A stretch of 61,821 bases of DNA from an uncultured Gammaproteobacteria bacterium (GCA_964472675.1 CAYYLO010000005.1:1-61821); one strand, 5' to 3'; shown: positions 7,334-25,903, numbered from the stretch's first letter. A program made the numbers and translations. Notes: generated from the letters alone by a model not told the origin.

Positions 7334-7430
7334 GCTTACATTGTAGCACAAAAATTCAAATCAGCTCGCAGAAAACGGGTCTATTGTGGTACACTTTGCA
7401 CAAACCTCTTCAAAAAGAGGGCCTGTTTGT

Positions 7431-8462: not shown

Positions 8463-8464
8463 AA

Positions 8465-8803: not shown

Positions 8804-8829
8804 GTTTGTGATACAATCTGAAACCTGAC

Positions 8830-9609: not shown

Positions 9610-9617
9610 CCACACCG

Positions 9618-9699
9618 TGTCATTTCGAACGGAGTGAGAAATCTAGTTATTCTGCACTTCAACGAGATCTCTCGTCAGTTACACCTCCTCGAGATGACA
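9618..9699. mobile_element. Palindromic MITE/REP-like element
   Basis: Terminal inverted repeats TGTCATTTCGA...TCGAGATGACA with internal GAGAAATCT/AGATCTCTC. Confidence 0.75.
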
Positions 9700-9752
9700 A
9701 CTATCACCGCTTTTCTTGCAAAGCTACGCTTCTGCCTGATACACTTAGAACT

Positions 9753-10163
9753 GTGAAAATAATAAAAAGTAACTCGTCAGCTCGCAACATAGTAACTAGT
9801 TTCGCAAAGTGCACAATTGCCGCCCTCTTTACTCTAATCATTAATCACAAGTTACTAGTCACCTCTGCCTTAGCTGTCGATATAGGCGCCGAGTACAATT
9901 CTCCTGTAAAAAATATCACCGACATGGGAGGTTTGGTCTCGACCGTAGCCGGGAATCTTTATCTTATCGCCGGCGTTATAGTCTTCATCCTTTTCCTGTG
10001 GGGCGGGTTTGAATACATCCGTGGCGCAGGCTCTGATGACAGGGATGCCATTGGCCGCGGGAAAAAGATTATTTTCTCGGCAATTACCGGTTTCTTGATT
10101 ATCTTCGTCTCATATTGGATAATTCTACTTATTGAAATGTTGACCAACGTTAAAATATTTTAA
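9753..10163 (+). CDS. VirB2/TrbC-like T4SS pilin
   Basis: GGFEYIRGAGSDDRDAIGRGKKIIFSAITGF. Confidence 0.8.
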   Translation: MKIIKSNSSARNIVTSFAKCTIAALFTLIINHKLLVTSALAVDIGAEYNSPVKNITDMGGLVSTVAGNLYLIAGVIVFILFLWGGFEYIRGAGSDDRDAIGRGKKIIFSAITGFLIIFVSYWIILLIEMLTNVKIF

Positions 10164-10164
10164 T

Positions 10165-10680
10165 ATGAGAAATCTCATCTTTGCTTTGATACTCTTTTTA
10201 TCTATTGTCTTTTTTGGTGCATCTCCAGCTTTTGCTCAAGCAGGCAGTACCTTCGACAGCGAAGTGGAGTGTCGACTTTCCGGATGTTCAGGCACCTGTA
10301 ATGATATAACTGTGGGCGATCAACCCACGTTTGTCTGTTACACCTCCACTGGCGGGACTGGAGCTTTATTTGGAAAAATTAAACCACCCGCTAAAGTAAC
10401 TTCAGACGTTTCAGGCTTAGGTAATTTTATTGGCGCAATTTTAAGACTCTTAGTTATTGCTGGTGGAGTTTGGGCTCTGTTTAACTTTATAATTGCAGGG
10501 TATCAGTTCATTCAAGCCGGCGGGGATGCAAAAGCAGTTAGTGCCGCCTGGGCAAGAATTTGGCAAAGTCTTGTAGGTATAGTCATAATTGCTGCGTCTT
10601 TCCTGTTTGCAGCTATCATTGGGCAAATATTCTTTGGAAGTCCAACAGCAATTCTTTCGCCAAAACTTATAACACCATGA
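10165..10680 (+). CDS. VirB2/TrbC-like T4SS pilin with Cys-rich N-terminal extension
   Basis: Signal peptide, CRLSGCSGTC...C, AGYQFIQAGGDAKAVSAAWARIWQSLVGI. Confidence 0.8.
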   Translation: MRNLIFALILFLSIVFFGASPAFAQAGSTFDSEVECRLSGCSGTCNDITVGDQPTFVCYTSTGGTGALFGKIKPPAKVTSDVSGLGNFIGAILRLLVIAGGVWALFNFIIAGYQFIQAGGDAKAVSAAWARIWQSLVGIVIIAASFLFAAIIGQIFFGSPTAILSPKLITP

Positions 10681-11042
10681 TAGAACTAATCGCAGACACA
10701 AGCCTTGGAGAATTAAAAGGACTTGGTCCTTTGGGTGACCCCGCCTCCTTTTCAGAAGGCACAGGCGGACTTTTGGAGAAGTTATTGTCCAATATTATTG
10801 GCTTTTTAACTGTGGGGGCTATCTTGTGGTTTGTTGTTCAAATCGTCATTGGGGGTTACAGCTTAATGACAGCAAGCGGAGATCCTAAAGGAGCAGCTGA
10901 TGCAAGACAAGGGATCACAAATTCAATAATCGGGTTGGTTGTTGTTTTTGTAGCATTAATTTTTGTTTCCGTTATCGGATTCCTATTGGGGGTTGATGTT
11001 TTGAAAATTGGCGATTTTGTTAACAACTTAAGTATTAAATAG
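10677..11042 (+). CDS. VirB2/TrbC-like T4SS pilin
   Basis: GGYSLMTASGDPKGAADARQGITNSIIGL; ATGA overlap with the previous gene. Confidence 0.8.
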   Translation: MIELIADTSLGELKGLGPLGDPASFSEGTGGLLEKLLSNIIGFLTVGAILWFVVQIVIGGYSLMTASGDPKGAADARQGITNSIIGLVVVFVALIFVSVIGFLLGVDVLKIGDFVNNLSIK

Positions 11043-11049
11043 AACACAC

Positions 11050-11382
11050 ATGTACCTGGCAGATATCTCAAACCCAATAACACCTAGACTAAATCCTACA
11101 GCAGGAACTTCTGTTGGTTTGTTTAGCTCAGTCATTGCTGTAATTATCAAAACTCTATTTGTTGCCGGATTTGTACTATTTATCGTTTACTTTTTAATTG
11201 GAGGTCTGCAGTGGATTACATCCGCAGGAGATGCAAAAGCCCTTGAAAAAGCCCGCAATAGTGTAACCCAGGCAATTTTTGGCATTGTAGTTATGCTTGC
11301 CCTCTTTGCAATCATAAGGCTTATTGAAGCTGTCTTTGGCGTCAACATTTTACAAATTGATCTTGGCGCGATTAAAATATAA
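11050..11382 (+). CDS. VirB2/TrbC-like T4SS pilin
   Basis: GGLQWITSAGDAKALEKARNSVTQAIFGI. Confidence 0.85.
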   Translation: MYLADISNPITPRLNPTAGTSVGLFSSVIAVIIKTLFVAGFVLFIVYFLIGGLQWITSAGDAKALEKARNSVTQAIFGIVVMLALFAIIRLIEAVFGVNILQIDLGAIKI

Positions 11383-11407
11383 TTACATACGGTGAGGGGG
11401 TGAAAAC

Positions 11408-11806
11408 ATGACAAAACAAACTTTAAATTTTCTTTGGGCGTCTAGCGTAGCTTTGGCTCTTTCTGCAACACCAATTGCAGCTCAAGAATCAGCAAAAATT
11501 AATGTGGGTACAGGTGCTCCATCCACAACCGTTGCTAACCTAACAATTGGAGCAATCGTCTCAACAGCTATTAAAATTTTAGTCGTTGTTGCAGCTGTCT
11601 TGTTCTTCTTCTGGTTGGTATTAGGTGGTATTAAATGGATCACCTCAGGTGGAGATAAAAACAAAACCGAAGAAGCTCGCCAACAAATAACGTCAGCTTT
11701 GGTTGGTTTGGTTGTAGTCTTTTCAGCCTGGGCAATTGCCCAACTTATAAGGATATTGTTCGATGTCGACTTGTTCAATCTTACGATTAGCAGAGTTGGT
11801 GTCTAA
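11408..11806 (+). CDS. VirB2/TrbC-like T4SS pilin
   Basis: GGIKWITSGGDKNKTEEARQQITSALVGL; signal peptide. Confidence 0.85.
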   Translation: MTKQTLNFLWASSVALALSATPIAAQESAKINVGTGAPSTTVANLTIGAIVSTAIKILVVVAAVLFFFWLVLGGIKWITSGGDKNKTEEARQQITSALVGLVVVFSAWAIAQLIRILFDVDLFNLTISRVGV

Positions 11807-11904
11807 CAGCAAAAGTGATAGGGATTAGTGATAGCGATTTTAGGTGTCTATCCTGATCCCTTTCGCATTTTGCCCCATCGCTGCTTTTCTGATACACTTG
11901 CAAT

Positions 11905-12243
11905 ATGGCAAGCTGGTTGGGAACTGCATGTGTTGGCACAAAGATAAGCGACACAGTTGATGCGTCGGATGTCGCAACAATTGCTGGTTTGGAGTGCGCT
12001 TTTGGGAACGTCATTGGTGTCGTTTTGGCTCTTTCCGGTGTGGTAGTTTTCGTTACGTTTTTGATAGGAGGTTTTAAATATCTAACCTCAGGATCTGATC
12101 CAAAGGCAGTAGAATCAGCAAAACATACTCTAACAGCAGCCATTGCGGGGCTAGTTGTTTTGGTTTTGGCATTTGCGGTTTTATTGGTTATTCAAGCTGT
12201 AACAGGAGTGCAGGTAACTCAATTTAAAGTAACGACTCCATAG
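11905..12243 (+). CDS. VirB2/TrbC-like T4SS pilin
   Basis: GGFKYLTSGSDPKAVESAKHTLTAAIAGL. Confidence 0.85.
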   Translation: MASWLGTACVGTKISDTVDASDVATIAGLECAFGNVIGVVLALSGVVVFVTFLIGGFKYLTSGSDPKAVESAKHTLTAAIAGLVVLVLAFAVLLVIQAVTGVQVTQFKVTTP

Positions 12244-12321: not shown

Positions 12322-13431
12322 ATGATCCGCTTCTTATCATTCTTATCACTATTTCCCTTCTTTTTGATTCTGTTCACACAAACCACGCACGCTGCTGATA
12401 CTACTCCCGATTCTTATGGAACCGAAAAGGGCCAGCAGCTATTTAGCCCTGAAAACGCCCAGAAATTAATTCCTTATAAAGGAGATTCTCCAACCATTGC
12501 TGACTTCGGAAAATCTGCGGAGTTTTTCCGTGACTCAACCAATGCCTATGCTCCCACACCCTCTCCCCAAGCACAAATTGATCCAAACTCTAAAGTGTTA
12601 GGCAGTTCCATTTTTGAAAACTTCTTTAATGCCCTCAGGGGTCTGTTTGATGAAGTTTTCGCCAGGCTTTTTTCTGGCGGCATACCTTTCTTTGGGACTA
12701 TTTACACCAATGGAACAAATGCTCCTAAGCTGACCGAAACAGAAGAAACAAAGAACGAGTTTAACCGCGGAGTTGACGAATATATCGACTCACTAAACCC
12801 ATTCAACGCTAATCCCTTCAGAATAACCTCAGGAATCGCCTCAGCCTTCAATATGCAATCCGAAAATCTTAAGGGAATCATAAATAGTGCAGCCGAAGCA
12901 ACTGAAGTTCCAGCCCCTCTTTTATTGGCTATCTCCCAAACCGAAGCCCCGGGAGCTTTTAGCTACACAGATGAGGACGTGAAGTTTTTTAGCACGGACA
13001 ATTGGTGGGCTGGTTCGCCATACGACACCCTCAAAAAGGGGTATTGCTACAATACCTGTTCTGATCCGTCATTGGGTTGTCCAAACAACGACGTCCGTGG
13101 AGCAACACAATTCGAGGCCGCCACATGGAGAAGTTTAATAAACGATAACGCCTCTCGTGGTTTAGTAGGTATCCAAAGCGTGTTGCAATCAAAATTTGGA
13201 TTGAACAAGACCATCACTGCCGACGACCGGTGTAATGTGGCTGCAGCTTTTGTTGGCACAGCTGTTAAAATAAAAAGGGACGCCGGAGCAACACCAGCTT
13301 GGGACGAGCCAACTATAAGAAAGGTTGCTGGGGCCTACTGTGGAACATGCAACCCAAGTCGTGCGTGTGGGCCTGATTACTGTGGAACCGTATGGAGGCT
13401 TTTTAAGTCATATTCTTCCCAATCACAATGA
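12322..13431 (+). CDS. Secreted lytic transglycosylase/lysozyme-like protein (VirB1-like)
   Basis: Signal peptide; VPAPLLLAISQTE (catalytic Glu position), GATQF, AYCG. Confidence 0.65.
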   Translation: MIRFLSFLSLFPFFLILFTQTTHAADTTPDSYGTEKGQQLFSPENAQKLIPYKGDSPTIADFGKSAEFFRDSTNAYAPTPSPQAQIDPNSKVLGSSIFENFFNALRGLFDEVFARLFSGGIPFFGTIYTNGTNAPKLTETEETKNEFNRGVDEYIDSLNPFNANPFRITSGIASAFNMQSENLKGIINSAAEATEVPAPLLLAISQTEAPGAFSYTDEDVKFFSTDNWWAGSPYDTLKKGYCYNTCSDPSLGCPNNDVRGATQFEAATWRSLINDNASRGLVGIQSVLQSKFGLNKTITADDRCNVAAAFVGTAVKIKRDAGATPAWDEPTIRKVAGAYCGTCNPSRACGPDYCGTVWRLFKSYSSQSQ

Positions 13432-13864: not shown

Positions 13865-14233
13865 CTAACGAAGAGGAACCAGTCTCACTTCAAGCTTGGC
13901 ATTGAGTGCCCTTGCAACTTTTTCTAAAGTTTTGTGGGTATAGCCTGTATAGTCCGCTGCTTCAATCCGAGCAATGTTGGATTGAGTAGTTCCAACCAAT
14001 TTTGCCAACTGCGTTTGAGTAAGACCCGCTTTTTTGCGAAGATCATAAATCTGAAGAGCAATACCCCAAGCAGCCCCTGCTTGGTCAAGCTCGTACTGAA
14101 AAGCAGGATCCTCCTTGAGAATTTTTTCTATTGTTCTATCAAGATCGTCTTTTTTTCTTTTCATTTTCCTCCTTGTGATAAACTCTACTTCTAAGTTCAA
14201 GTTGTCCTGGTAGTAACTAATTTCAAATTCCAT
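13865..14233 (-). CDS. XRE/HigA-like HTH regulator (possible alternative start at 14164)
   Basis: LRKKAGLTQTQLAKLVGTTQSNIARIE. Confidence 0.9.
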   Translation of the reverse strand: MEFEISYYQDNLNLEVEFITRRKMKRKKDDLDRTIEKILKEDPAFQYELDQAGAAWGIALQIYDLRKKAGLTQTQLAKLVGTTQSNIARIEAADYTGYTHKTLEKVARALNAKLEVRLVPLR

Positions 14234-14238
14234 AGTGG

Positions 14239-14258
14239 TTATATCAAAGTTGATATAA
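14239..14258. promoter_or_regulatory. Operator-like inverted repeat inside the XRE promoter
   Basis: TTATATCAA-AG-TTGATATAA; minus-strand TTGACA (14260-14265) and TATAAC (14238-14243) flank and overlap it. Confidence 0.65.
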
Positions 14259-14351
14259 ATGTCAAGAAGTGCAATTGATTTTTAAGGTGGTTTTTTGACA
14301 AGTTACTTAGTATGGTATATGCTTGTTTTTAGGCTAAACCATATTAAGTAT

Positions 14352-15314
14352 ATGTCGTACTTATCCAAAATATTGATTGATAGAATAGAAAGCAAACTAA
14401 AATTTCTTCAGAAACTAAGGCCTTTGCCCCCTTCTGCCGTAAAAAAACTCCAAGAACAGTTTGAAATTGAAATGACTTACAACTCAAACGCCATCGAGGG
14501 AAACAGCCTTACTCTAAAAGAAACTTATCTTGTTATCCAAGAAGGTTTAACTATAAAAGGAAAACCCCTTAAAGACCATCTAGAAGCAAAAGATCATCAT
14601 GAGGCTTTGGAATTTTTGCATGAGACCGTCGAACACGGCTCGCAACCAACCCTCTCTGAGCACTTAATACGAACGCTCCATCAAATCGTTATGAAGAAAA
14701 CCGACGAAGAGTATGCAGGAAAATATAGGAATAGCAAGGTTTTTATAGGAGGAGCCGATCATGTTCCTCCCGACGCGCTTCTCGTACCGAAACAGATGCC
14801 TGATCTTATTCGTTGGTTTTCCAAAAACATAAAGCGCCTTCACCCAATAGAACTTGCAGCTCTGTTGCACCACAAACTCGTTTACATACATCCATTTTTT
14901 GACGGAAACGGCCGGACAGCACGATTAGTTATGAATATTATACTGATGAAGGCCGGATATCCGTTGGTTATTATACTGAAAAACGATAGAAAAAAATACT
15001 ATCGAGCTTTAAGCCAAGCAGATAGCGGAAAATATTCTCTTCTCGTTCAAGTTATTGCTCAAGCAGTAGAACGTTCTCTGAATATTTACTTAAAGACCCT
15101 TACACCAATAAACCAACGCAGGGAAAAGTTTGGTTCGCTTAGGCAGATGAGTAGAAAAGCTCCATATTCAACTAAATATTTAAACTTGTTAGCGCGAACT
15201 GGCAAGCTTGAAGCCCACAAACAAGGCCGAAATTGGTTAACAAGCTATGAGGCAATTAGAAGATATATTGGCCAAAGAGAAAGAGCACGAAAATTTGTTA
15301 GATTGAAAAAGTAA
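14352..15314 (+). CDS. Fic family protein (N-terminal inhibitory motif) with C-terminal HTH
   Basis: SNAIEGN, HPFFDGNGRTAR, LARTGKLEAHKQGRNWLT. Confidence 0.92.
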   Translation: MSYLSKILIDRIESKLKFLQKLRPLPPSAVKKLQEQFEIEMTYNSNAIEGNSLTLKETYLVIQEGLTIKGKPLKDHLEAKDHHEALEFLHETVEHGSQPTLSEHLIRTLHQIVMKKTDEEYAGKYRNSKVFIGGADHVPPDALLVPKQMPDLIRWFSKNIKRLHPIELAALLHHKLVYIHPFFDGNGRTARLVMNIILMKAGYPLVIILKNDRKKYYRALSQADSGKYSLLVQVIAQAVERSLNIYLKTLTPINQRREKFGSLRQMSRKAPYSTKYLNLLARTGKLEAHKQGRNWLTSYEAIRRYIGQRERARKFVRLKK

Positions 15315-15357: not shown

Positions 15358-16770
15358 ATGAAACTCTTCAAGCCTGCTCGCAATCTAATTCGCAGCGTTG
15401 CCCGCCACCCAAAGTTTTTTGTCTTTATTCTTTTCTGTGCTCTTGTGGCCGCCCCCGCAGCCTATGCCCAATATTCTCTGGATACCCACCAAGAAGCCCT
15501 CAATGCATCTGGACAGAATTTACAAAAATTTTCTGAGCAAAATTTTGCTGGTTTTGTTAATTCAGTCAACACCGCTTTACTTGGCTGTCCGAAATGTAAC
15601 GACTCAGACCTAAAAGTAGGAGTAATGCCATTTACCGTAAATATGATTGCTGGGTTGTACAGCAATCCCCCTGCTTCAGGGATTGCTTATCTTGACGATG
15701 TGGCCCAACGTTTTAATCCAGTTCGCCCAGCTTATGCCCAAACAGGTACTGGTTTTACTGGACTAGCACCACTTCTACCTCTGTGGAAAGCATTTAGAGA
15801 TTTTGCATATGCGTTTTTTGCCATATTATTTGTAGGAATTGGCTTAGCCATAATGTTCCGCATGAAGCTAGATCCTCGAACCGTATTGACCATTCAATCT
15901 GCCATACCAAGAATCGTTATTGCTCTATTACTTGTTACTTTTTCTTACGCAATTGCAGGCTTAATGATTGATCTTTTATATGTAATGATATCCTTAGCAA
16001 TTCTCATATTTGGTCGAGCCGGAGCCGACGTACCTCATTTTCAAGAAATGTACCTAACTGGGGGATTTGGAGCTTTGTGGGGAAGCTTGTGGGGAGTTGT
16101 TGGAGGAGGAAAAACAGCCGTAGTTTCAGGGCTTACTTCAATTGCTGGCCTTTTAGGTTTTTTGCTTTTACCAACTATTCCTGTTCTCTCGGGTGCATTG
16201 TTTGGAATTGGCTTAGGTGCCGGTTTATTTTTGTTGCTTTTAGTCGTCATAATAATTTATGTTCTTTTCAAAATTTTTATGGATCTACTTCGAGCATATA
16301 TTGGTATTATTATTGCTGTGGTGTTGGGCCCTCTCCAGATAGCTTTAGGTGTTATACCAGGCTTCCCGGGGTTCGGGTCTTGGCTGAAAGGGCTCTTTAC
16401 TAATGTATTAATCTTTGTTGGTGTAGCATTTGTACTAATGTTGGGTCAAACCATAATTGGTTTAGGTTTTGCAACTAACCTTTGGCACCCTCCTTTGTTG
16501 GTAGGAGGCGGATTAGTTGGAACTGTTATTCCCGTGCTTATCTCTATTGGAATTCTCCAAATAGTTCACCAAGTCCCCGAGGCAGTCAGACAAATAATGG
16601 CTGGAAGACCGCCCGAATTTGCACCTGGCCAAGCAGTAAATACACTTGTTGGATCACCTGCATCTGGAGCAATGGAGGATAGAGCTAGAAGATCAACTGG
16701 GTTCTTTGAAGCTGCTGCTTGGAGAGTTGGAGGAGGAATTTTGGGAAGCGGGGGGGGTCGGAGAAGATAA
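15358..16770 (+). CDS. Polytopic membrane protein, VirB6/TrbL-like
   Basis: LWKAFRDFAY...IPRIVIALLLVTFSYAIAGLMID, many TMs, YIGIIIAVVLGPLQIALGVIPG, Gly-rich tail; T4SS context. Confidence 0.65.
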   Translation: MKLFKPARNLIRSVARHPKFFVFILFCALVAAPAAYAQYSLDTHQEALNASGQNLQKFSEQNFAGFVNSVNTALLGCPKCNDSDLKVGVMPFTVNMIAGLYSNPPASGIAYLDDVAQRFNPVRPAYAQTGTGFTGLAPLLPLWKAFRDFAYAFFAILFVGIGLAIMFRMKLDPRTVLTIQSAIPRIVIALLLVTFSYAIAGLMIDLLYVMISLAILIFGRAGADVPHFQEMYLTGGFGALWGSLWGVVGGGKTAVVSGLTSIAGLLGFLLLPTIPVLSGALFGIGLGAGLFLLLLVVIIIYVLFKIFMDLLRAYIGIIIAVVLGPLQIALGVIPGFPGFGSWLKGLFTNVLIFVGVAFVLMLGQTIIGLGFATNLWHPPLLVGGGLVGTVIPVLISIGILQIVHQVPEAVRQIMAGRPPEFAPGQAVNTLVGSPASGAMEDRARRSTGFFEAAAWRVGGGILGSGGGRRR

Positions 16771-16795
16771 ACATTAGTAGATGATTGAATCTTCC

Positions 16796-18853
16796 TTATG
16801 TGTCAGGATCCAATCCAACCTTAGAACGAAACCACTTTCTAAAACCAACACCCGCTTTCATGGGACCACCTAACTCACGCGCTACTCCCCTCACCCCATA
16901 CAACTCTCGTCTTAGCCTGCTAGATTGAGCCCTTTCATCCTCTATTGATATCCTTGAAGGATCCATAAGCCTATCCTTCGTTGCGTCAGAAAGCTTTCTC
17001 TTGACGTCAAGTATACCAGCGTCTTTGTCCATTGTCTTTCTTATAGCTTCAAGCCTTTCACCGTAACGCAACCTACCTCCCTCGGGTCCTCGACCGCTCC
17101 TGTAAGCATTTATGGTATTTACAAGGTCTTCTAACCTCTTGTAATCTGCCCAATCACGCCTATCTTTGCCTGATGGGTATCGAGCTCCAATTAACGCACT
17201 TGCAAACTCATCAATACCGTAATTTGCCAACACTCTATCTAAACGATCTCCGGTTTGTGTATCAGAATTTCTCTCGATTATTGGCCTTATGTCGGAGTAT
17301 TCTAAATCTCCTGTCCGTGTTTGAGGATCATATAGCTTACCGTACAACTCTTTAAACTTTTCGTTTTGATGAGGAAATCCGAAATACCTAAATATGGTAT
17401 AAGCCAATCTTACTACGCCTTTATCTGTCCCAACAGCTTGTTGAACAGCTAAAAGATAGGCATCTATCTCTTGGTTTGTAATACCAATATCACCCTCTCC
17501 GCGATAGTTTGTACCCCTGCCACCTAACACATCAGAAAATCTATGGGTTGTTCCTTCAAGTATGTAAGAAGAAGAGTGTTCAGCATATATATAATTGTTG
17601 TTTCTCCCAACTCGTCTCAAACCTGGAATAATAGTAGTGGGGTCTTCATATTCTCCTTCCGCCCCACCTTCCCTGTGAACTCTATAACCTTGAAGTTGGA
17701 ATAATAGAGACAGGCACCTTCTTGTCTCCGAATCAGCCCTCAACCAAGTACCTATTCCCCCAGGAAAAGGACCTTGTTGTTCAATGTGTGCAGCCACATC
17801 ATCAATGCGGCTGGAATCCATAGTAAAGTTAAGCAAGATCAACCTTTGCATGGTATCGTAACTTAAGCGAAATAGTCGGTCGCGGGAAGCTCGTAAAACC
17901 AAATTAAGTTCGGCAGCAATCGCGTCAGTACGACCTCCATCCATAACATCGCTTAAAACCTGAAAGGACCTGACATCCAATGGAATTCCCTGATAATCGT
18001 TTGCGCCGATCAAATCAGGCAACTGGTGAAGTCGAGCCCACCGTCTCGAGAAAGTACTCCCATTTGAGGGGTCAGGTTCGTCTACTCTCCACTCGATTCG
18101 GCGTACAGCATAAGTTCTATCAATATCTGGTTGTGCTCCCCCCGGATTGGCGGGTTGTGGTTCCGAGCGAGCTGCCCGAGCGGCTTCCGCCGCAAGCCTC
18201 CTTTGTTCTTCGATAAACGCTCTCTGTTCCTCAGCCGCTTGGCGTTGGGCTTCTGCTGCCGCCAGTTGAGCTTCTCTTACTCTTGCCGCTTCTTCATCCC
18301 GCACGGGTGGTCTGGCTGGCTCGGGTTCTGTAACCCTCGCTGCAGCTGCTTCAGGAATAAGTTTCTGCCACTTCCAAGATTCGTCTGTATATCTTTCTAA
18401 TTCTTCCTCGGGAATGGTTCCTGGTTCAGCACGATTGTACATTTCCTGCATAACTCGCTGGAGTCCATGTTCATACCTCCATCCTGCCAACCCTTCAAAA
18501 AGAGTTCTGTTGGCGCCATTCAAGGTGAGTGAGCTAGCACGATCTATTTGTGCGGATCTGTCCATTTTTTCAGAAATTGCCAGCGCTTGGCTGGGAAGGT
18601 CGGGCAAGGTTGCAATTTCTGCCGCATCCGCATCTAACTGTCGGTCACCAATAACAAACAATCGTAAACTTTCTGCACGAGCTGCAAGTCTAGAACGTTC
18701 ATCAATAAGCTGACTTCTCCTCTCGCGGTCAGCAATTGTGGGAGCAGCACTTGCTTCTACTGCATCAATTTCACCTTGGACGACTCTAAAAGGACGAAGC
18801 TCAACCCGATCTACTGCAGCCTCGCGGGGTGCTCCTGGTATTTCTGGTGCCAT
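16796..18853 (-). CDS. Hypothetical 685-aa soluble protein with E/A/R coiled coil
   Basis: Long ORF, TATAAT 7 nt upstream of the ATG, no recognised family. Confidence 0.75.
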   Translation of the reverse strand: MAPEIPGAPREAAVDRVELRPFRVVQGEIDAVEASAAPTIADRERRSQLIDERSRLAARAESLRLFVIGDRQLDADAAEIATLPDLPSQALAISEKMDRSAQIDRASSLTLNGANRTLFEGLAGWRYEHGLQRVMQEMYNRAEPGTIPEEELERYTDESWKWQKLIPEAAAARVTEPEPARPPVRDEEAARVREAQLAAAEAQRQAAEEQRAFIEEQRRLAAEAARAARSEPQPANPGGAQPDIDRTYAVRRIEWRVDEPDPSNGSTFSRRWARLHQLPDLIGANDYQGIPLDVRSFQVLSDVMDGGRTDAIAAELNLVLRASRDRLFRLSYDTMQRLILLNFTMDSSRIDDVAAHIEQQGPFPGGIGTWLRADSETRRCLSLLFQLQGYRVHREGGAEGEYEDPTTIIPGLRRVGRNNNYIYAEHSSSYILEGTTHRFSDVLGGRGTNYRGEGDIGITNQEIDAYLLAVQQAVGTDKGVVRLAYTIFRYFGFPHQNEKFKELYGKLYDPQTRTGDLEYSDIRPIIERNSDTQTGDRLDRVLANYGIDEFASALIGARYPSGKDRRDWADYKRLEDLVNTINAYRSGRGPEGGRLRYGERLEAIRKTMDKDAGILDVKRKLSDATKDRLMDPSRISIEDERAQSSRLRRELYGVRGVARELGGPMKAGVGFRKWFRSKVGLDPDT

Positions 18854-18913
18854 ATACCAAATTATACAAGAAAAGTTGTTCTACTCCAAGCTTATTGCTA
18901 TTATTAGTAAGTT

Positions 18914-20272
18914 ATGGCTGAAACTGCTCCAATATCCGAAGGTCCAAGACCAGAAATTAGCCCTTTTGACAGCTTAAGAAAAAATTTTGGTGCAGCTGCT
19001 CGACAGATAAGAGGAATTGAGAGTGGGAACGAAGCCGAAATGCGCGCAGCTGTTCACGATCCTGAAGTTTGGAAAAAGACATTTCAACGTCTAGCCGTCC
19101 CGGGAGAAAGTGTGGATACTTGTCATCAAAATTACTGTAGGGAACTTGCCCAGACAGCCGTGCAACTTGGAGCCAGTAATGAACAAGTTCAAAGCTTTGA
19201 AAGTTTTTTAGGGCTCCCCGAGGGGAAAATTGATTACTATTCGGCTTTTATGGATGCTACGAGTTGGCAAAAAGCTGCCACTGGCGGAACCCCGGGTGGC
19301 GTAGAAAGAAAAGCTGAACCAGTTGATCTTTTTCAAGCACACCCACCCGAAACTGGAGAAAAACTGCCGCGCTATAGAGATAGAGATGAGCAAATTGCTT
19401 ACAGAACTTACCAGGAAGCCTGGAACCCCAACCCGTTAATGGCAAACCGTGTTGATAACTGGTTTGAGAACGAACGGGCCAGGTTAAGAGCGCGCGGTGA
19501 AGTAGGACAATCTTCTGAAAAAAGAGAAGTAAGGCCTCCATTGAGGTGGTTGTTGGATGAAATTAATACGTCACTGAAAGATAGAAATGTCGACCTAAAC
19601 GACCGTACACAAGTTGAGGCTCAAATAAGAAACGAAGCATTTTGGCTGGGAACTCCTGAGAGCTTTTGGGAAAAACTGGCAGTAGGTTCTAAGCAAAGGC
19701 CGGAGGATTTCCAGGAGGAAAAATGCAGGGAAGTTTTAGAAGATATCCGAACAAGGAGAGGAGGGCATGACGATAGAGCCGAACTGCGCACCCTATTTGG
19801 GCTGCCCCCAGGTTACAGGTTTGATCTTTATGATTTAATTGACATAACAAATGGTTTTATCACCAACTCCCAACTTGTGGAACAAGAGGCTCGCCAATCA
19901 AGTGCCGCCAGCCAGATACCTACATCAGAAGTACCAATTCAAGAACTGATTAATCAAGGAGACAAAGATGACAGTACCCCAAGAAGATGGCAGAGATTCC
20001 GTGGCTCACTCAACCCCTTGGGTGGCGCCACTATGGCTACCCAAATCACTACACCAGAAGAGCCTGAAGCAGTCCAGGTGGAAGAGGTTGAGACACCTGT
20101 GGCCAGTGAAGGTTTAACTGGTGGCCTTCGCGAAGCGTTCCAAAAAGCGCAACAAGAACAAGCCCGGGAAGATAAGACTGGCAACAATGATAAAAGAGCG
20201 CAAAGAAGACAAAAGAGAGACGAACAGATCCGCCGCGCCCGAGAGCTCCGCAGAAAATACAGCGGCGGGTAA
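18914..20272 (+). CDS. Hypothetical 452-aa charged protein with Arg-rich C-terminus
   Basis: Long ORF, no TM or signal, no recognised family. Confidence 0.75.
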   Translation: MAETAPISEGPRPEISPFDSLRKNFGAAARQIRGIESGNEAEMRAAVHDPEVWKKTFQRLAVPGESVDTCHQNYCRELAQTAVQLGASNEQVQSFESFLGLPEGKIDYYSAFMDATSWQKAATGGTPGGVERKAEPVDLFQAHPPETGEKLPRYRDRDEQIAYRTYQEAWNPNPLMANRVDNWFENERARLRARGEVGQSSEKREVRPPLRWLLDEINTSLKDRNVDLNDRTQVEAQIRNEAFWLGTPESFWEKLAVGSKQRPEDFQEEKCREVLEDIRTRRGGHDDRAELRTLFGLPPGYRFDLYDLIDITNGFITNSQLVEQEARQSSAASQIPTSEVPIQELINQGDKDDSTPRRWQRFRGSLNPLGGATMATQITTPEEPEAVQVEEVETPVASEGLTGGLREAFQKAQQEQAREDKTGNNDKRAQRRQKRDEQIRRARELRRKYSGG

Positions 20273-20395
20273 TTCCCGTGTTTTGTGAAAAATCCTCCGA
20301 GTTGCAAACCCGTTTTCATATGTTAAGTTTGAAATAGAGAGACTTTTGAAGTATATTGTTTAACTCTCCTGGTTTTGCTTGATTTTTATACCCTT

Positions 20396-21367
20396 ATGCC
20401 TTTAGAACAACATCCAGTACCACAAGAGATTTCATCCTACGAATTCCGCTTAGTCGGAGATATGACTTTGAAGCAATTTTTACAACTTGCCGGCGGGGTA
20501 GGAGTTGCCTTTTTGATTTTCGTTACTCCCCTTCCTGCTTTTATTAAATGGCCGGTAGTCGCATTCGCAGCAATTTCAGGTGCCGCTTTGGCTTTTTTGC
20601 CCATTGAAGAAAGGCCTTTGTCTTTCTGGTTTTTCTCATTTATTAAAGCCGTTTACTCACCAACACTTTATTCTTGGGAAGATGGGACATCACAAGACGT
20701 TTTTGCAAAAGAAAGCGCAGCAGTAACACCCGCAATTATTGCCCCCCAAGGCCAGGAAAAAGCCGAAGAGTATCTACGCTCTGTTCCGCAAACAGAAGTT
20801 GTAAACCGGCTTGAAGAAATAGAAAAAGGGTTTTTCAAAAAAATCTTTGGCCTGTTCCAAACGCCAACTCCCTCAGGCACGCCAACCCCAACTCAAGTCT
20901 CACCACAAGTTACATCCTTGCCTACTCCGGCTATTATTAATCCCAACGCACCGCTGGCTCCACCCACAGAATCAATTAAAATTGAACACCAACAAGCTGA
21001 ACACAATCCCACTCCGATTACTCCTGTTTATGGCAGCAATATACAACCCGCCCGACAAGCCGCACAAGCCCAGTTTGCATTGCAGGCTGCTCCTCCCAAT
21101 CCTCCCGTACAGCCCAACATTATTGTCGGCCAAGTAATCACCAATGACGGCAAAATCATTGAGTCGGCAATTTTGGAAATCAGAGAAGTTGGCGGCACAC
21201 CAGTCAGAGCTTTGCGCACCAACAAAATTGGACACTTTATGACAGTTACTCCCATAAAAGACGGGGAATATGAAATTTTAACAGAGAAAGAGGGATTAAC
21301 TTTCGATGTAATTAAAATAACAGCCAGCAGCAATATTATTCCACCGATACTAATAAAGGCGAAGTGA
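20396..21367 (+). CDS. PrgI (VirB3-like) family protein with C-terminal carboxypeptidase-regulatory-like beta domain
   Basis: HPVPQEISSYEFRLVGDMTLKQF, LAFLPIEERPL; VRALRTNKIGHF. Confidence 0.85.
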   Translation: MPLEQHPVPQEISSYEFRLVGDMTLKQFLQLAGGVGVAFLIFVTPLPAFIKWPVVAFAAISGAALAFLPIEERPLSFWFFSFIKAVYSPTLYSWEDGTSQDVFAKESAAVTPAIIAPQGQEKAEEYLRSVPQTEVVNRLEEIEKGFFKKIFGLFQTPTPSGTPTPTQVSPQVTSLPTPAIINPNAPLAPPTESIKIEHQQAEHNPTPITPVYGSNIQPARQAAQAQFALQAAPPNPPVQPNIIVGQVITNDGKIIESAILEIREVGGTPVRALRTNKIGHFMTVTPIKDGEYEILTEKEGLTFDVIKITASSNIIPPILIKAK

Positions 21368-21406
21368 AATTTACAATGTAAATTGGAAATTGAGAATTGA
21401 AAATTA
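21366..21406. repeat. 7-mer (AATTGAA-like) microsatellite
   Basis: aattgga aattgag aattgaa aatt; reverse complement of the 12255 tract type. Confidence 0.7.
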
Positions 21407-21411
21407 TTTAT

Positions 21412-22056
21412 ATGTCTACTATTGTTCCCATAAAAGCATCCTCTCAACAGCACGTCATTGTTGCTGATATTGCTGAAGATATAGTTTTGACTAAAGACGG
21501 CGGAGCGGCATTGGTTTTGCGCTCCTCGGCTTTAAACTTTTCGCTTTTATCTGAAAAAGAGCAGGAGGCAGTAACGGTTTCTTATGCTGCTCTTTTAAAT
21601 TCTTTATCCTTTCCTATCCAAATTCTTGTCCGCTCTCAAAAAAAGGATATTACCCGCTACCTGGCGTTTTTGGATACTCAAGAAAAACTCCAAACCAATC
21701 CGCAACTAAAAAGCCTTATGGTCGTTTACAAAAATTTCGTTTCCCAAATGGTAAAAAAAAGGAATGTTTTAGAAAAAGAATTTTATATAGTCATACCTTT
21801 CTCGCCGCTTGAACTGGGTATAACCACAGGCGGTTTTATCGATTTATTTACTCCTTCAGTTAGAACAAAAAAGGCAAAAAGCTTGCCTTATTCAAAAAGT
21901 TATATTATCAAAAAAGCAAAAACGGTTCTTTATCCAAAACGTGATCATTTAATCCGCCAAGTAGGCCGCTTAGGAATTAAAATGGATCAGTTGACAACGG
22001 AAGACTTGGCCACCTTGTTTTTTAAAATATACAACTCAAGCTCTCCGACCACCTAA
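21412..22056 (+). CDS. VirB4/TraC N-terminal-like conjugation accessory protein
   Basis: LNFSLLSEKEQEA...LLNSLSFPIQIL, KEFYIVIP, RLGIKMDQLTTEDLATLF. Confidence 0.7.
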   Translation: MSTIVPIKASSQQHVIVADIAEDIVLTKDGGAALVLRSSALNFSLLSEKEQEAVTVSYAALLNSLSFPIQILVRSQKKDITRYLAFLDTQEKLQTNPQLKSLMVVYKNFVSQMVKKRNVLEKEFYIVIPFSPLELGITTGGFIDLFTPSVRTKKAKSLPYSKSYIIKKAKTVLYPKRDHLIRQVGRLGIKMDQLTTEDLATLFFKIYNSSSPTT

Positions 22057-22063
22057 AAAACTT

Positions 22064-23938
22064 ATGCAATTACCAAACACAATTCCCGATTTGAAACCAA
22101 AAAGCCAGGTCGAACCACCAGCGGTAAGCAAACCCGCTTCCTCCAAATCTATCCAGGACATTATTGCCCCGCAAAAAATAGAGGTCGATTTTAACTACAT
22201 AAAAATCGACGGCCGGTACTTTAGAACTCTTTTTGTTTCAGGCTATCCAAGATTTGTTTATCCTGGATGGCTTGACCAAGTTATTAACTTTGACCACTCA
22301 TTAGACATCTCCTTTTTCACCTATCCAGTTGCCGGAAAAACAGTCCTTGATGATTTAAGACGCAAGATAACTGAAATGGAGGCAGAACTTGCTACCGACT
22401 TACAACGCGGGAAGGTGCTAAATCCTTCAACACAGGCAAAATTAGAAGATGCTCGAGATTTGCAAGACCAATTAGTAAAAGGTGCAGAGCGCTTTTTTCA
22501 GTTTTCTTTTTATATCACCATTCCGGCTTCAAACCTGGAAGAGTTAAACAATATTACCGCCCAAGTTGAATCAACTTTGGGGTCATTGTTGGTTGTAGCT
22601 AAAAAAACAACATTACGTATGGAAGACGGTTTCTTAACAAGCCTACCTTTAGGAGAAGACCGGCTTTCTATAACCCGCAATATGGATACAACTTCTCTTT
22701 CAACTACGTTTCCATTTTCTTCAGCTGAACTCTCCTCAGATAGCGGAGTTTTATATGGAATCAACGAAGATAACGATTCGTTGGTTGTTTTTGACAGATT
22801 TTCCCTCGAGAATTACAACTCGGCAGTTTTTGCAACTTCGGGATCCGGCAAAAGCTACAGCGTGAAGTTAGAAGCACTGCGATCCTTAATGTTGGGGGCG
22901 GAGGTTTTTATTATTGATCCCGAGCAGGAATATAAAAAGCTGGCCGAAGCAGTAGGCGGTGAATTTATTTCATTTTCCTTTAACTCGACTGCAAAAATTA
23001 ACCCTTTTGATTTGTCCAACATTGTCGACCAGGACGAAAATCAGTTGGGCTTAAAAATTCTTTCTTTGCATTCTTTGTTTGGAGTAATTATGGGCGCTCT
23101 AAATCCTTCCGAACAGGCAGTTTTAGACAGGGCTTTAATTGCGACATACAAAGCAAAAGGAATCACTCCTGACCCGGCTACACAAACCAAAACTCCCCCC
23201 TTAATGGAAGATCTTTATAAAACACTAATCGGTATGGAAGATGCCGTCTCCCGCTCTCTTGCCGACCGGATTGAAAAGTTTGTTAAGGGCTCTTTTGCCG
23301 GAATTTTTGATCAGCACACAAACATAAGTCTTAAAAACCCGTTTACTGTTTTTTCTGTCCGCGACCTGGAAGAATCATTGCGGCCGATTGCGATGTTTGT
23401 AGTTTTGGATTTTATCTGGACCCGCGTCAAAGAAAACTTGAAAAAGCGCATTTTAATCGTTGATGAGGCGTGGCATATGATGCGCTATCCGGATACTGCT
23501 CAATTTCTCTTCTCTATCGCCAAACGCTCGCGCAAATATTATTTGGGTTTAACAACTATAACTCAAGACGTAGAAGACTTTTTATCCTTAGATATTGGCA
23601 AGGCTATTGTTACTAACTCAGCCTTGAAACTTCTGATGAAACAGTCCCCTACGGCTATAGATAAGGTTGGTGAGGTTTTTAAACTTTCCCAGGGAGAAAA
23701 ACAGCTGTTATTATCTGCTGACGTGGGAGAAGGAATTTTCTTTGCCGGACCAAATCATGTTGCTATCCGTGTCGTGGCCTCAGACGAAGAACATAAATTA
23801 GTTACCACCAACCCTGCAGAAACACTTAAAAATCCCACACCAACAACCCCTACTTCCCCAAATACACCCATTACCCCAACTCCTACCTCACCCCCAGTTA
23901 ATTCAGGTCCTATCCTTCGCGTCGAAGAAGCTCAGTAA
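22064..23938 (+). CDS. VirB4-like conjugation ATPase
   Basis: Walker A ATSGSGKS, IIDPEQEY, Walker B ILIVDEAW, RSRKYYLGLTTITQ. Confidence 0.92.
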   Translation: MQLPNTIPDLKPKSQVEPPAVSKPASSKSIQDIIAPQKIEVDFNYIKIDGRYFRTLFVSGYPRFVYPGWLDQVINFDHSLDISFFTYPVAGKTVLDDLRRKITEMEAELATDLQRGKVLNPSTQAKLEDARDLQDQLVKGAERFFQFSFYITIPASNLEELNNITAQVESTLGSLLVVAKKTTLRMEDGFLTSLPLGEDRLSITRNMDTTSLSTTFPFSSAELSSDSGVLYGINEDNDSLVVFDRFSLENYNSAVFATSGSGKSYSVKLEALRSLMLGAEVFIIDPEQEYKKLAEAVGGEFISFSFNSTAKINPFDLSNIVDQDENQLGLKILSLHSLFGVIMGALNPSEQAVLDRALIATYKAKGITPDPATQTKTPPLMEDLYKTLIGMEDAVSRSLADRIEKFVKGSFAGIFDQHTNISLKNPFTVFSVRDLEESLRPIAMFVVLDFIWTRVKENLKKRILIVDEAWHMMRYPDTAQFLFSIAKRSRKYYLGLTTITQDVEDFLSLDIGKAIVTNSALKLLMKQSPTAIDKVGEVFKLSQGEKQLLLSADVGEGIFFAGPNHVAIRVVASDEEHKLVTTNPAETLKNPTPTTPTSPNTPITPTPTSPPVNSGPILRVEEAQ

Positions 23939-23956
23939 ATACGGTACAATACAAAT

Positions 23957-25903
23957 ATGGCTACAAAACCTGGTGGCTTTTTTAGCGTCTTCTCCAATAT
24001 TGTTTCCGACCTACAACAGCGCGTAAACCGGACTTTGTTTCGTTCTCAAAACCCTGCACATGGGGTTCCCCCAACCACAGCTGTTCCGCCAACCACAAGA
24101 ATCCAACAAAGTCCTCCTTGGATATCAGATGACTCGGACAAGCTAGTTTATCAGCAAACTAAAACAGAACTTAAGGAAATTCCCCAGGGAGAAAAGCAAC
24201 GTATCAAATCCCAATCGCCACTTGAGCAGGCGCTTGAAAAAGGCACCCAACTTGAACAATGGCAAGAATTACAAAAACAAACACCGGTTACGCCAGAAAC
24301 GACAGAAAACCCCATAAAAGTTCCGTTTATTCCCATATCCCGCCCAGTAAGGCCTATATCAATACAAACAGAGAAAGTTGCAACACCCGACATAAGCCGG
24401 GAACAATATCTTTTAGCCTTAGTTTCCCGCCCTAAAAGTTGGCAGGACCGTATTGTTGATGGTTTAAAAGATGCTATTCCCTTTCTCCCAAAATCACACA
24501 CCTCAGAAGAGAGACTGGAAGATGCTATCAATCAACTTATTGCCCAAAATCCCGAATTTGCCAACTCCGAGGAAGTTAGGGTTGTTAAAGATTCTAAAAA
24601 AGGAATCCTTGAGGAAGTTGAAACCTTAACCGGACAAGTAAAAGATGTCCGATTTGTGCCCCCAAAAAGCTACGACTATGAACAACCCCGCATAGGCTCC
24701 GGCGATCATGTTTTTAACTTAAATATCAGCCCCTCCTCAAATATTGTTCGCATCGCCCAAGAACCCTTTAATCGGTTTATTTCTCCCAAATTTGCCCCTG
24801 TTTTGAAACAGTTTGCGGGCAGTGCAGCCCAAAACGCCGCTTCCCAATCAGCAATTCTGGGGAGAGGTCTGATTTCGGGAGCAGCTCGCGGATTGAGTTC
24901 TGGATTATTGAGGACAGCCATGGGTGCTGGAAGATTGCTGGCTATCTTTGCTGGAGGCGGACAAGCAGCAGCCATCGGCGGGGGCGCTTTGGCTTTAATA
25001 CTAATTCTGGTTATCGCTTTACCTTTGGTTCTCAATAACACCGGTCCTATTTTTACTCAGCGCGCAGCCTTAAGTAGTGCTGGCGGTACAGGAGACGTAC
25101 TTGCCAAAGGCAACCAATATATTTCAATTGAAATCTCTTCTTCTAAAAATACGCTTAAAAATGAAGAGTTGCCTCAAGATGTAACTTTTACTGTTACAGT
25201 CAAACCAAAAAAGCAGCCATTTCAGGAAGATCCTAATATTTCAGCAACTATAACTGCATCAGGTAAAGATGGCACAAAAACCCTGGTAAGTGAAAGTTGG
25301 TCGGAAGAAACTCACCAAATCAATCTAAAGCTGGAAAACTTGGAAGACGTCAATGTTATCCTGGCCGTTAGTGTTAGTGCTAGAGTCGAAGAACAACCAG
25401 ACAGCCAAACCGCTGCCAACAACGCTTCAATTAGGGTGGGAAACCCACCTGATGATTGCCCCAGTGGTTGGGCAACAACTTATGGAACCATAACCTCCGA
25501 ACCAAATGATTCAGTCGTCTCAACCCACCGAACCGCAGAAGCGATCGATATCGGCAACAGCCCGAAAGGTAGAATTCAGGGCGCGCCAATTTACGCAACC
25601 AGCCGTGGTGTGACCTCGTTTAACTGCTACAGCTCTTTATATGGAAACTGTGTTCGGATAACAACTTCCTGCAACGGTAAAACAGTCGAAATAATATATG
25701 CCCACATGATGAACAGAAGTGTCCAGGACGGCCAAGGTGTTTCTTCAGGAACTCAAATTGGAAGTGTTGGAGCAACAGGTAACGTCTTTGGCAGCGATCC
25801 AAACCATTTGCATTATGAATTCTTAAAAATTAGTGGTTCTGTTACAATTCCAATGGCACCACCATATATACCCTTGCACGGAAAACGCGGAACTACATGG
25901 TAA
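23957..25903 (+). CDS. Membrane-anchored M23 family peptidase
   Basis: HRTAEAIDI (HxxxD) and HLHYE (HxH); Gly/Ala-rich TM region. Confidence 0.85.
   Translation: MATKPGGFFSVFSNIVSDLQQRVNRTLFRSQNPAHGVPPTTAVPPTTRIQQSPPWISDDSDKLVYQQTKTELKEIPQGEKQRIKSQSPLEQALEKGTQLEQWQELQKQTPVTPETTENPIKVPFIPISRPVRPISIQTEKVATPDISREQYLLALVSRPKSWQDRIVDGLKDAIPFLPKSHTSEERLEDAINQLIAQNPEFANSEEVRVVKDSKKGILEEVETLTGQVKDVRFVPPKSYDYEQPRIGSGDHVFNLNISPSSNIVRIAQEPFNRFISPKFAPVLKQFAGSAAQNAASQSAILGRGLISGAARGLSSGLLRTAMGAGRLLAIFAGGGQAAAIGGGALALILILVIALPLVLNNTGPIFTQRAALSSAGGTGDVLAKGNQYISIEISSSKNTLKNEELPQDVTFTVTVKPKKQPFQEDPNISATITASGKDGTKTLVSESWSEETHQINLKLENLEDVNVILAVSVSARVEEQPDSQTAANNASIRVGNPPDDCPSGWATTYGTITSEPNDSVVSTHRTAEAIDIGNSPKGRIQGAPIYATSRGVTSFNCYSSLYGNCVRITTSCNGKTVEIIYAHMMNRSVQDGQGVSSGTQIGSVGATGNVFGSDPNHLHYEFLKISGSVTIPMAPPYIPLHGKRGTTW

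Follow-up and report, generated by a model that had tools for sequence, protein, structure and literature searches.

What is the role of two large genes that stand inside a type IV secretion system (T4SS) locus on contig CAYYLO010000005.1 (GCA_964472675.1, deposited as an uncultured Gammaproteobacteria bacterium), of which the whole 61,821-nucleotide stretch, positions 1-61821, was analyzed and is referred to here as the window? The T4SS locus is chromosomal, of the Patescibacteria type and located beside dnaN/dnaA, and its bearer is an ultra-small groundwater bacterium of the Candidate Phyla Radiation (CPR). Gene A (16796..18853, minus strand, 685 amino acids) and gene B (18914..20272, plus strand, 452 amino acids) lie between the gene for a VirB6-like membrane protein and the gene for PrgI. 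Our open reading frame (ORF) calls and translations agree with the first-pass annotation of this DNA, which had proposed the pair as candidate effectors in a variable slot. Most of what it observed was right, and its effector reading has partial support. The broader result is that T4SS loci of Microgenomates-type Patescibacteria include an opposite-strand gene whose position is fixed and whose sequence is hypervariable; A is the allele of this class present here, of modular build, and B is a partner that not every locus has. Each gene of the class lies directly after the VirB6-like gene and ahead of prgI-trsD-virB4, and its product, here referred to as the slot protein, is large and soluble.

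Position of the Slot Gene in Patescibacterial T4SS Loci

Word-indexed searches of 5.8 billion protein clusters returned four matches each for A and B, all from Candidatus Blackburnbacteria or metagenome assemblies. An exhaustive HMMER search of 1.84 billion representatives returned 36 proteins matching the modules of A described below (P0009-P0032 to the C1-domain; P0023 and P0033-P0041 to the N-domain only), and every one of them whose contig was fetched sits in the slot position. Homologs of A were found at the same position in loci L001, L003, L007, L008, L011, L012 and L013, and homologs of B in L001, L006, L007 and L011. A scan of 185,579 species genomes, with a query alignment of eight sequences, gave five loci, each with the relative of A tail-to-tail with the VirB6-like gene. 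In all 13 loci derived by homology, linkage to the T4SS was exclusive and the slot position constant. The slot was filled by homologs in all Blackburnbacteria/Microgenomates loci seen, and the modules of A and B were never seen outside it. The common gene order in relatives is pilins, a gene of about 370-430 amino acids, a 134-amino acid gene, a variable toxin-antitoxin cassette, the VirB6-like gene, the A-like gene on the opposite strand, the B-like gene, PrgI, the TrsD-like gene and VirB4.

The same arrangement was recovered when loci were anchored on the VirB6-like gene instead of on A. A metagenome scan detected at least 564 VirB6-like relatives, of which the best 80 loci were kept, and 41 of these had at least 2.5 kb of downstream sequence. 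In 41/41 the next gene was a large opposite-strand ORF of 561-1357 amino acids, usually followed by PrgI, TrsD-like and VirB4 genes (gene calls in metagenomic loci are ORF heuristics of this analysis). A slot gene of the A class is thus constant in 41/41 anchored and 13/13 homology-derived loci; B is not constant. The first-pass annotation had described the pair as interrupting the VirB6-PrgI junction. The position is correct, and the word "interrupt" is misleading, as this gene order is what the T4SS lineage conserves and does not result from an insertion. Because the gene order is the same everywhere and the pair is fixed in position, the expectation of random slot content was wrong: the comparison of the slot across related genomes did find hypervariable content, in a slot that was never empty or random.

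Divergence, Recombination, and Selection

No genes of the locus have diverged further than A and B. Identity between the window and L001 is 96% for VirB4, 89% for TrsD-like, 88% for the M23 peptidase, 88% for UppS, 80% for PrgI, 61% for VirB6-like, 47% for B and 37% for A; the 37-47% of A and B against 80-96% for other subunits is not subunit-like conservation. The VirB6-like protein is itself fast-evolving (53-63% identity among Blackburnbacteria loci). A comparison of the window with L011 (MHBW01000031, a Blackburnbacteria metagenome-assembled genome) gave about 100% nucleotide identity from 11857 to about 15400, a stretch of 3.5 kb comprising the last pilin gene, the 370- and 134-amino acid genes, the helix-turn-helix (HTH) and Fic genes and the first ~60-100 nt of the VirB6-like gene. 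Past those ~60-100 nt, identity fell to 61-66% inside the VirB6-like gene, was mostly undetectable across A and B, and returned to 78-82% from PrgI onward (78-90% in the flanks of A/B). Judging from the alignment, the near-identical stretch, with its sharp edge inside the VirB6-like gene, indicates recent recombination or transfer, and the collapse of identity across VirB6-like, A and B points to a hyperdivergent core bounded by a recombination breakpoint.

Ratios of nonsynonymous to synonymous substitution (dN/dS) between L001 and L011, for which dS is partly saturated, were 0.02 for VirB4, 0.06 for VirB6-like, 0.06 for the C-domain of A, 0.18 for the N-domain of A and 0.26 for B. A and B are real genes under constraint, parts of which are relaxed or change quickly. 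A foreign origin of A and B was considered and rejected: G+C content at third codon positions (0.35-0.38) is like that of the neighbors, and the higher overall G+C stems from codon positions 1 and 2.

Modular Architecture of A

The A protein has no transmembrane (TM)-like segment (maximum Kyte-Doolittle 19-mer 0.72), an isoelectric point (pI) of 5.6 and 12.3% Arg, and is mostly helical according to a low-confidence model. Local hidden Markov models (HMMs) and alignments divide it into four parts. The helical N-domain (amino acids 1-182; 18308..18853, minus) begins with MAPE, or MAE in homologs. It is followed by a linker (amino acids 183-263; 18065..18307, minus) made of an Ala/Glu/Arg/Gln-rich helix (AEAQRQAAEEQR...) and then a Pro-rich stretch; the longest part of the structural model with a predicted local distance difference test (pLDDT) above 50, at about amino acids 188-228, falls within it. 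The C1-domain (amino acids 264-665; 16859..18064, minus; 24-sequence alignment) represents an uncharacterized family of about 400 amino acids with the conserved motifs FSxRWxRxHGxPD, WLxxDxETRR, GVVRLAYTIFRxxGFPH and AKRK. The protein ends in a basic, aromatic and amphipathic tail (amino acids 666-685; 16799..16858, minus), KAGVGFRKWFRSKVGLDPDT. Net charge of the last 25 residues is +3 in A and averages +3.96 over the 24 sequences of the C1 family, against -0.37 for their interior, with 22/24 tails positive.

These modules assort independently. The N-domain of A is fused to at least five unrelated C-domains across other loci, and C1 was also seen stand-alone and downstream of other N-regions. 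The slot protein of L006 has only the N-domain in common (72% identity with L001) and an unrelated C-domain, and four combinations of N-domain types b and c with C-domain types 1 and 2 were recovered (L001 Nb-C1, L006 Nb-C2, L003 Nc-C1, L014 Nc-C2). Between L001 and L011 a recombination breakpoint coincides with the linker, with identity of 52-78% before it and 89-98% after it. The linker is the apparent site of domain exchange. C1 is not a fixed structural part, since its place can be taken by an unrelated C-domain in loci whose machine genes are still 73-88% identical.

Gene B and Its Relation to A

The product of B is acidic and soluble and comprises two helical B-repeats, linkers that are probably disordered and, at the C-terminus, a basic helix. 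It has no TM-like segment (maximum Kyte-Doolittle 19-mer 0.39), a pI of 5.3 and 10.4% Arg, and is again mostly helical in a low-confidence model. The first-pass annotation of both proteins as soluble, charged and helical can therefore be kept, with the addition that they are Arg-rich and acidic overall and that their helicity comes from low-confidence models. The internal repeat of B was detected at E 6e-4. The B-repeat is a helical unit of about 100 amino acids with invariant W, C and T and the motif LFGLP...DL.D.T.G. Repeat 1 (amino acids 16-120; 18959..19273, plus; pLDDT 70-80) is the hypervariable copy, with 19-28% identity to close relatives, and repeat 2 (amino acids 207-316; 19532..19861, plus) is the conserved copy, with 71-94% identity and the motif FWLGxPxSFW...C...LFGLPxxYRFDLYDLIDxTNG. 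The acidic linkers between repeats were modeled with low confidence and are probably disordered. The basic C-terminal helix (amino acids 425-450; 20186..20263, plus), DKRAQRRQKRDEQIRRARELRRKYSG, is conserved in the B1 family. As the first-pass annotation had noted for both C-termini, the end of B is strongly basic, with a net charge of +9 over residues 421-450.

B is restricted to Blackburnbacteria-like lineages and most loci are without it. Where a B-type protein is lacking, its place is empty or is taken by a Zn-ribbon protein or by a protein that has one repeat and ends in a different C-terminus. The type of B tracks the type of the N-domain of A, as that of an adaptor or chaperone would, but this is weak evidence of a partnership, because the genes are adjacent and linkage alone could explain it. 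The hypervariable ends of A and B point toward one another. A similarity between the N-termini of A and B, reported in the first-pass annotation, was not significant in pairwise comparison (BLAST E 2.8; hhalign probability 0.3%).

Two loci carry second-type proteins at the position of B (L003 8544-9920 and L016 6802-7938, both minus), which have one B-repeat and a J-domain-like end, ...KARRKV.MA.HPD. The L014 homolog is without HPD, and the Pfam DnaJ match among these relatives reached E 0.24 only. A J-domain co-chaperone role was rejected for the window's B, which has no HPD region; it is a weak lead in distant relatives only.

Shared Features of Slot Proteins and Searches for Known Families

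A set of 54 slot proteins, two of them near-identical, fell into 14 BLAST clusters. Profile-profile comparison merged few of these, and none with the modules of A. Most of the proteins have neither TM segments nor a signal peptide, and most are net acidic. Their common features are found at the two ends. N-termini are hydrophilic and rich in Pro, Gly and charged residues, and Glu occurs at position 3 in 31/54 slot proteins compared with 14/279 neighboring genes (p 1e-18, a value inflated by shared ancestry; motif statistics on slot proteins are affected by phylogenetic non-independence). At the other end, the last 25 residues exceed the C-termini of other proteins in amphipathicity (p 8e-6) and in aromatic content (p 4e-5), and are much more basic than the interiors of the same slot proteins (p 1e-10).

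A, B, their modules and the alternative C-domains had no match in Pfam, NCBIfam, PDB (by sequence or profile), PHROGs or PADLOC, and a concatenated A+B profile search recovered known A proteins only. The sections of PMC12102498 and PMC10633639 consulted here do not describe the A/B slot. Together with the few matches among protein clusters, these results bear out the earlier claim that the pair was undescribed.

Predicted Transcription Signals Around A and B

The 60-nt gap between A and B spans exactly 18854-18913, as first annotated, and contains, as read by eye, a putative divergent promoter region (18854..18913). For A these are a -10 box ATTATA (reverse complement TATAAT; 18861-18866, minus) and a -35 box with reverse complement TTGGAG (18885-18890, minus), and for B a -35 box TTGTTC (18876-18881, plus) and a -10 box TATTAT (18899-18904, plus). 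Each -10 box is 17 nt from its weak TTG-type -35 and 7-9 nt from the respective start codon, a distance that predicts back-to-back promoters with leaderless or near-leaderless mRNAs. The -10 boxes on both strands that had been pointed out earlier are thus present by reading, and an equivalent divergent layout was found in 8 other loci; a consensus promoter scan made no call on these boxes. An operator-like palindrome, TTGC-N5-GCAA, lies between the divergent -10 boxes in L001, L011, L006 and L014 and is degenerate in the window.

The gene for A is convergent with the VirB6-like gene and divergent from B. A and the VirB6-like gene are tail-to-tail with 25 nt between their stop codons (16771-16795), and in most other loci this gap ranges from -4 to ~30 nt. 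A search of the 25-nt gap for a bidirectional terminator found no significant hairpin (z -0.67); with so small a convergent gap, transcription of the two genes may overlap. A terminator-like hairpin directly 3' of B (20265..20279, plus) and a promoter-like site upstream of PrgI (20329-20357, plus) were found, both as consensus matches only. The hairpin suggests that B is not co-transcribed with PrgI, and the two signals together make A/B resemble a self-contained divergent unit.

Possible Roles of the Slot Proteins

We tentatively favor, at somewhat less than an even chance, a role for A as a substrate dedicated to export or as a factor in host interaction, and for B as a partner of A confined to certain lineages. 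This reading is ranked first because a fixed position next to a conserved machine admits unrelated domains and whole unrelated proteins, because the shared features lie in the termini and not in the bodies, and because the T4SS is one without known cargo. Patescibacteria T4SSs are mostly without relaxases or a coupling protein nearby and are often near dnaA (PMC12102498), and PMC10633639 and PMC12857230 describe the T4SS of Southlakia as having no recognizable coupling protein, as essential for epibiotic growth and as possibly exporting proteins, with no substrate known. A would be the dedicated cargo of a T4SS without a relaxase and, in the window, without VirD4, delivered as an effector into a host bacterium or acting as a host-interaction factor on the surface. 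The activity or specificity would reside in the variable body (here C1), which recombination at the linker would exchange. Recruitment to the membrane-embedded VirB6/VirB4 apparatus may depend on the two ends, namely M-x-E and the Pro/Gly/charge-rich N-terminus together with the amphipathic, aromatic and basic C-terminal helix. B could be the cognate partner of the N-domain of A, as an adaptor/chaperone or co-substrate that binds through its hypervariable repeat 1. Extended to the class as a whole, the proposal becomes on balance unlikely: what the CPR T4SS translocates would, in Microgenomates if not more widely, be the opposite-strand slot proteins, a new coupling-protein-independent class of substrates recognized by a disordered M-x-E N-terminus and an amphipathic, aromatic and basic C-terminal helix. 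Their hypervariable, recombining bodies would set host range or manipulate the host bacterium, and the B-repeat proteins would serve as lineage-specific adaptors.

Effectors of VirB/D4 systems such as Agrobacterium VirE2/VirF and the Bartonella Beps carry positively charged C-terminal signals. Slot proteins resemble them as predicted cytoplasmic proteins without a Sec signal, with a basic C-terminal tail and encoded in or near a T4SS locus. Unlike these effectors, they have no VirD4 receptor encoded in the window and no BID-like domain, their T4SS is of the monoderm type, and the charge of their tail is no higher than the genomic background, the tail being amphipathic and aromatic and not simply Arg-rich. 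Polymorphic effectors that combine a trafficking domain with a swappable C-domain are the LXG toxins of type VIIb secretion systems (T7SSb), with their Lap partners, and the Xanthomonas X-Tfe proteins with XVIPCD. These share with the slot proteins a location inside the secretion locus, unrelated alternative C-domains and recombination at the junction with a conserved helical N-domain, and an adjacent helical partner (B) whose type tracks the N-domain. The slot proteins differ from both in having no downstream immunity gene, no recognizable toxin domain and no LXG/XVIPCD homology, and in the presence of exactly one slot gene per locus without orphan cassettes.

Several results weigh against export. 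The charge of the slot C-termini does not differ from that of neighboring genes (+1.9 vs +1.4, p = 0.14), and scans of the large ORFs of the 61.8-kb window with Pfam, and of the locus core also with NCBIfam, detected no VirD4-type coupling protein (T4CP) that could read the VirB/D4-type C-terminal signal invoked in the first-pass annotation, which weakens the case for such a signal. The M-x-E enrichment could instead reflect the start context of leaderless mRNAs, and the presence of C1 without the N-domain (L012, P0012, P0021) means that the N-domain is not an obligatory signal. C1, C2 and the other C-domains contain no toxin or enzyme domain recognizable in Pfam, NCBIfam, PDB, PHROG or PADLOC. 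There is no immunity gene at the 3' end of A, where the VirB6-like stop is 25 nt away, nor room beyond ~30 nt in most loci. AlphaFold2 models from 4-row alignments (pLDDT 40.9 for A, 53.4 for B) are too poor to use, and Foldseek found nothing below E = 1 with them; the suggested check for cryptic toxin folds turned up none in these models. Gene-wide positive selection was not seen (purifying overall, dN/dS 0.06-0.26), and the sequencing runs that hold this sequence are DNA metagenomes only, with no RNA. The universal presence at one position (41/41) also fits a machine component. The earlier interpretation as an effector or an effector/chaperone pair is accordingly sustained by the exclusive T4SS linkage, the variability and the tracking between B and the N-domain of A, and is weakened by the constancy of the slot gene and the lack of a toxin fold and of an immunity gene.

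Close behind the exported-substrate reading, possible if somewhat more doubtful, is that A stays in the cell as an accessory T4SS subunit at the membrane periphery, tethered to the inner face of the membrane by its C-terminal amphipathic helix, with B as an assembly or regulatory partner. The slot protein could then be the equivalent of the hydrophilic domain of an extended VirB6, detached from it, or a platform that receives substrates in place of the absent coupling protein. The helix (GFRKWFRSKVGL; FNLFSRLFK and FFEFLRQLFK in relatives) has an aromatic/hydrophobic face and a basic face, as do the short terminal membrane-targeting helices of MinD and FtsA; the likeness is compositional only, and the helix resembles such membrane anchors as much as it does a secretion signal. 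TraG of the F plasmid and RvhB6 of Rickettsia are examples of extended VirB6 proteins. Like the large hydrophilic domains of this class (PMC12857230), A is large, variable, hydrophilic and always adjoining VirB6-like, and both are fast-evolving; unlike them, it is a separate opposite-strand gene and not fused to the polytopic core. The VirB6-like protein of the window is unusually short (470 amino acids), and Southlakia has VirB6-like proteins of ~1000 amino acids with large hydrophilic domains and no equivalent of A or B (PMC12857230 on extended VirB6); in its essential cluster SEML1_0006-0019 all genes between VirB6-like and PrgI are co-directional and encode membrane or NTF2-like proteins. 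An accessory subunit is also in line with the equal constraint on C1 and VirB6-like between close relatives (dN/dS 0.06 each) and with the constant adjacency of the two genes in anchored and homology-derived loci. The presence of unrelated C-domains or whole proteins in the slot while VirB4, TrsD and PrgI are conserved would be unusual in a structural subunit; the gene lies outside the operon, on the other strand and under a predicted promoter of its own, and neither A nor B has profile homology to any VirB, Prg or Trs subunit family (Pfam, NCBIfam, PDB). The outcome that the first-pass annotation named as refuting, a conserved structural subunit, agrees with what was found in constant presence and position only and not in homology or conservation.

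Regulatory, passenger and relaxase readings are less likely. Regulation of the T4SS by A and/or B, either through transcriptional interference set up by the divergent promoter and the convergence of the gene on the pilin/VirB6 operon or through proteins that switch between the operons for pilin and ATPase, is improbable. The opposite-strand orientation has been kept over very deep divergence despite sequence replacement, and the short convergent gaps without a significant terminator, the palindrome in four loci and the Arg-rich basic helix of B, which could bind nucleic acid, would suit it; hypervariable proteins of 560-1350 amino acids far exceed the need of orientation-based interference, no DNA-binding domain was detected, and the degenerate palindrome in the window and the lack of B in most loci likewise tell against it. 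We consider it just as improbable that the pair is passenger cargo unrelated to secretion, such as a defense, addiction or selfish module in a recombination hotspot. A genuine cassette hotspot exists 1.5 kb upstream, between the 134-amino acid gene and VirB6-like (Fic, HicAB, HepT/NTase, BrnT, ParE or PIN), and recombination breakpoints flank the A/B block, but the slot always holds one large opposite-strand gene, its modules keep to the slot position and have native third-position G+C, and PADLOC, PHROG and Pfam gave no matches. Least credible, and very unlikely, is a strongly divergent descendant or replacement of a conjugative relaxase or DNA-processing protein, with the intergenic region as an oriT remnant. 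In operons of the pIP501/pGO1 type a relaxase precedes VirB3, TrsD, VirB4 and the hydrolase, and by this gene order a protein of ~650 amino acids upstream of VirB3-like/TrsD/VirB4/peptidoglycan hydrolase genes fits in position. Inverted repeats are present in the intergenic region, and unusual relaxases might escape detection (PMC12102498). A was nevertheless rejected as a relaxase on its motifs, having no HUH/3-His motif and a single His in residues 1-185; its predicted fold is all-helical (low confidence), no MOB, Pfam or NCBIfam match was obtained, and unrelated proteins occupy the slot.

The slot class accompanies VirB6-like in every locus examined of one large CPR lineage, yet is replaced and recombined faster than its surroundings, and it is a concrete candidate for a cargo or a specificity-determining part of the machine. 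The positional rule, a large opposite-strand ORF after the virB6-like gene, finds slot genes in metagenomes where homology fails. Should host specificity depend on slot proteins, their alleles might serve to match uncultured CPR bacteria with hosts.

Flanking Genes of the T4SS Locus

The locus begins with an array of VirB2-like pilin genes (7386-12243), in or beside which lies uppS (undecaprenyl-diphosphate synthase; 8830-9609), likewise in L001, L003, L011, L015 and L016. The genes 3' of the pilins encode two exported or membrane proteins, the HTH/Fic cassette and the VirB6-like protein, followed by A, B, PrgI, a TrsD/TraC-like protein, a VirB4 of the CD1110 family and an M23 peptidase, and then dnaN-dnaA. 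The gene at 12322-13431, upstream of VirB6-like, bears a signal peptide. The VirB6-like protein (15358..16770, plus; 470 amino acids) is polytopic with ~10 TM-like segments; a Pfam scan of it gave no match, and the VirB6 call stands on topology and position. The conserved operon from PrgI (VirB3-like) through TrsD/TraC-like and VirB4 to the M23 peptidase (20375..25903, plus) was assigned by Pfam and NCBIfam, with a PrgI match of E 5e-7 for the gene right of B. The true start of PrgI is probably ATG 20396 rather than TTG 20375, since homologs open with MPLQQHPVPQ or MEQHPVPQ. A relaxase was detected neither by Pfam in the window's large ORFs that were scanned nor by NCBIfam in the locus core. 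The VirB2-like pilin array, TrsD-like and VirB4, PrgI, the M23 hydrolase, the chromosomal location by dnaN/dnaA and the absence of a nearby relaxase or T4CP all fit the Patescibacteria T4SS of MPF-FATA ancestry, as described by Quinonero-Coronel et al. (2025, PMC12102498) and Wang et al. (2023, PMC10633639).

The place in the locus whose content is truly random is a hotspot for toxin-antitoxin or addiction cassettes between the 134-amino acid gene and VirB6-like (window 13865-15314; L001 13631-14093; L003 13535-14354; L006 5651-6197; L007 12014-13093; L014 5268-5917; L015 4163-4576), which contains HTH and Fic genes in the window and HicAB, NTase/HepT, BrnT/CopG, HicA with ParE/Phd, Gp49/HTH or PIN elsewhere. 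The T4SS locus of L003 (JACPEJ010000001, 7477-12031) is in two parts: the one with pilins, VirB6-like, A and its partner lacks PrgI/VirB4 and adjoins a response regulator and SBP/VanW/TsaD/LeuRS genes, which suggests that A and its partner move together with the half that holds VirB6 and the pilins. Among more distant loci, and unlike in the window, the gene of ~360-460 amino acids upstream of VirB6-like likewise opens with M-x-E-R (L077 5714-6898, L082 328-1509, L083 5990-7072, L084 4435-5607, L094 6470-7642). At the far end of the window are a protein of 1838 amino acids with three DUF5667 repeats and a RhuM-family gene (53469-58985 and 59690-60718).

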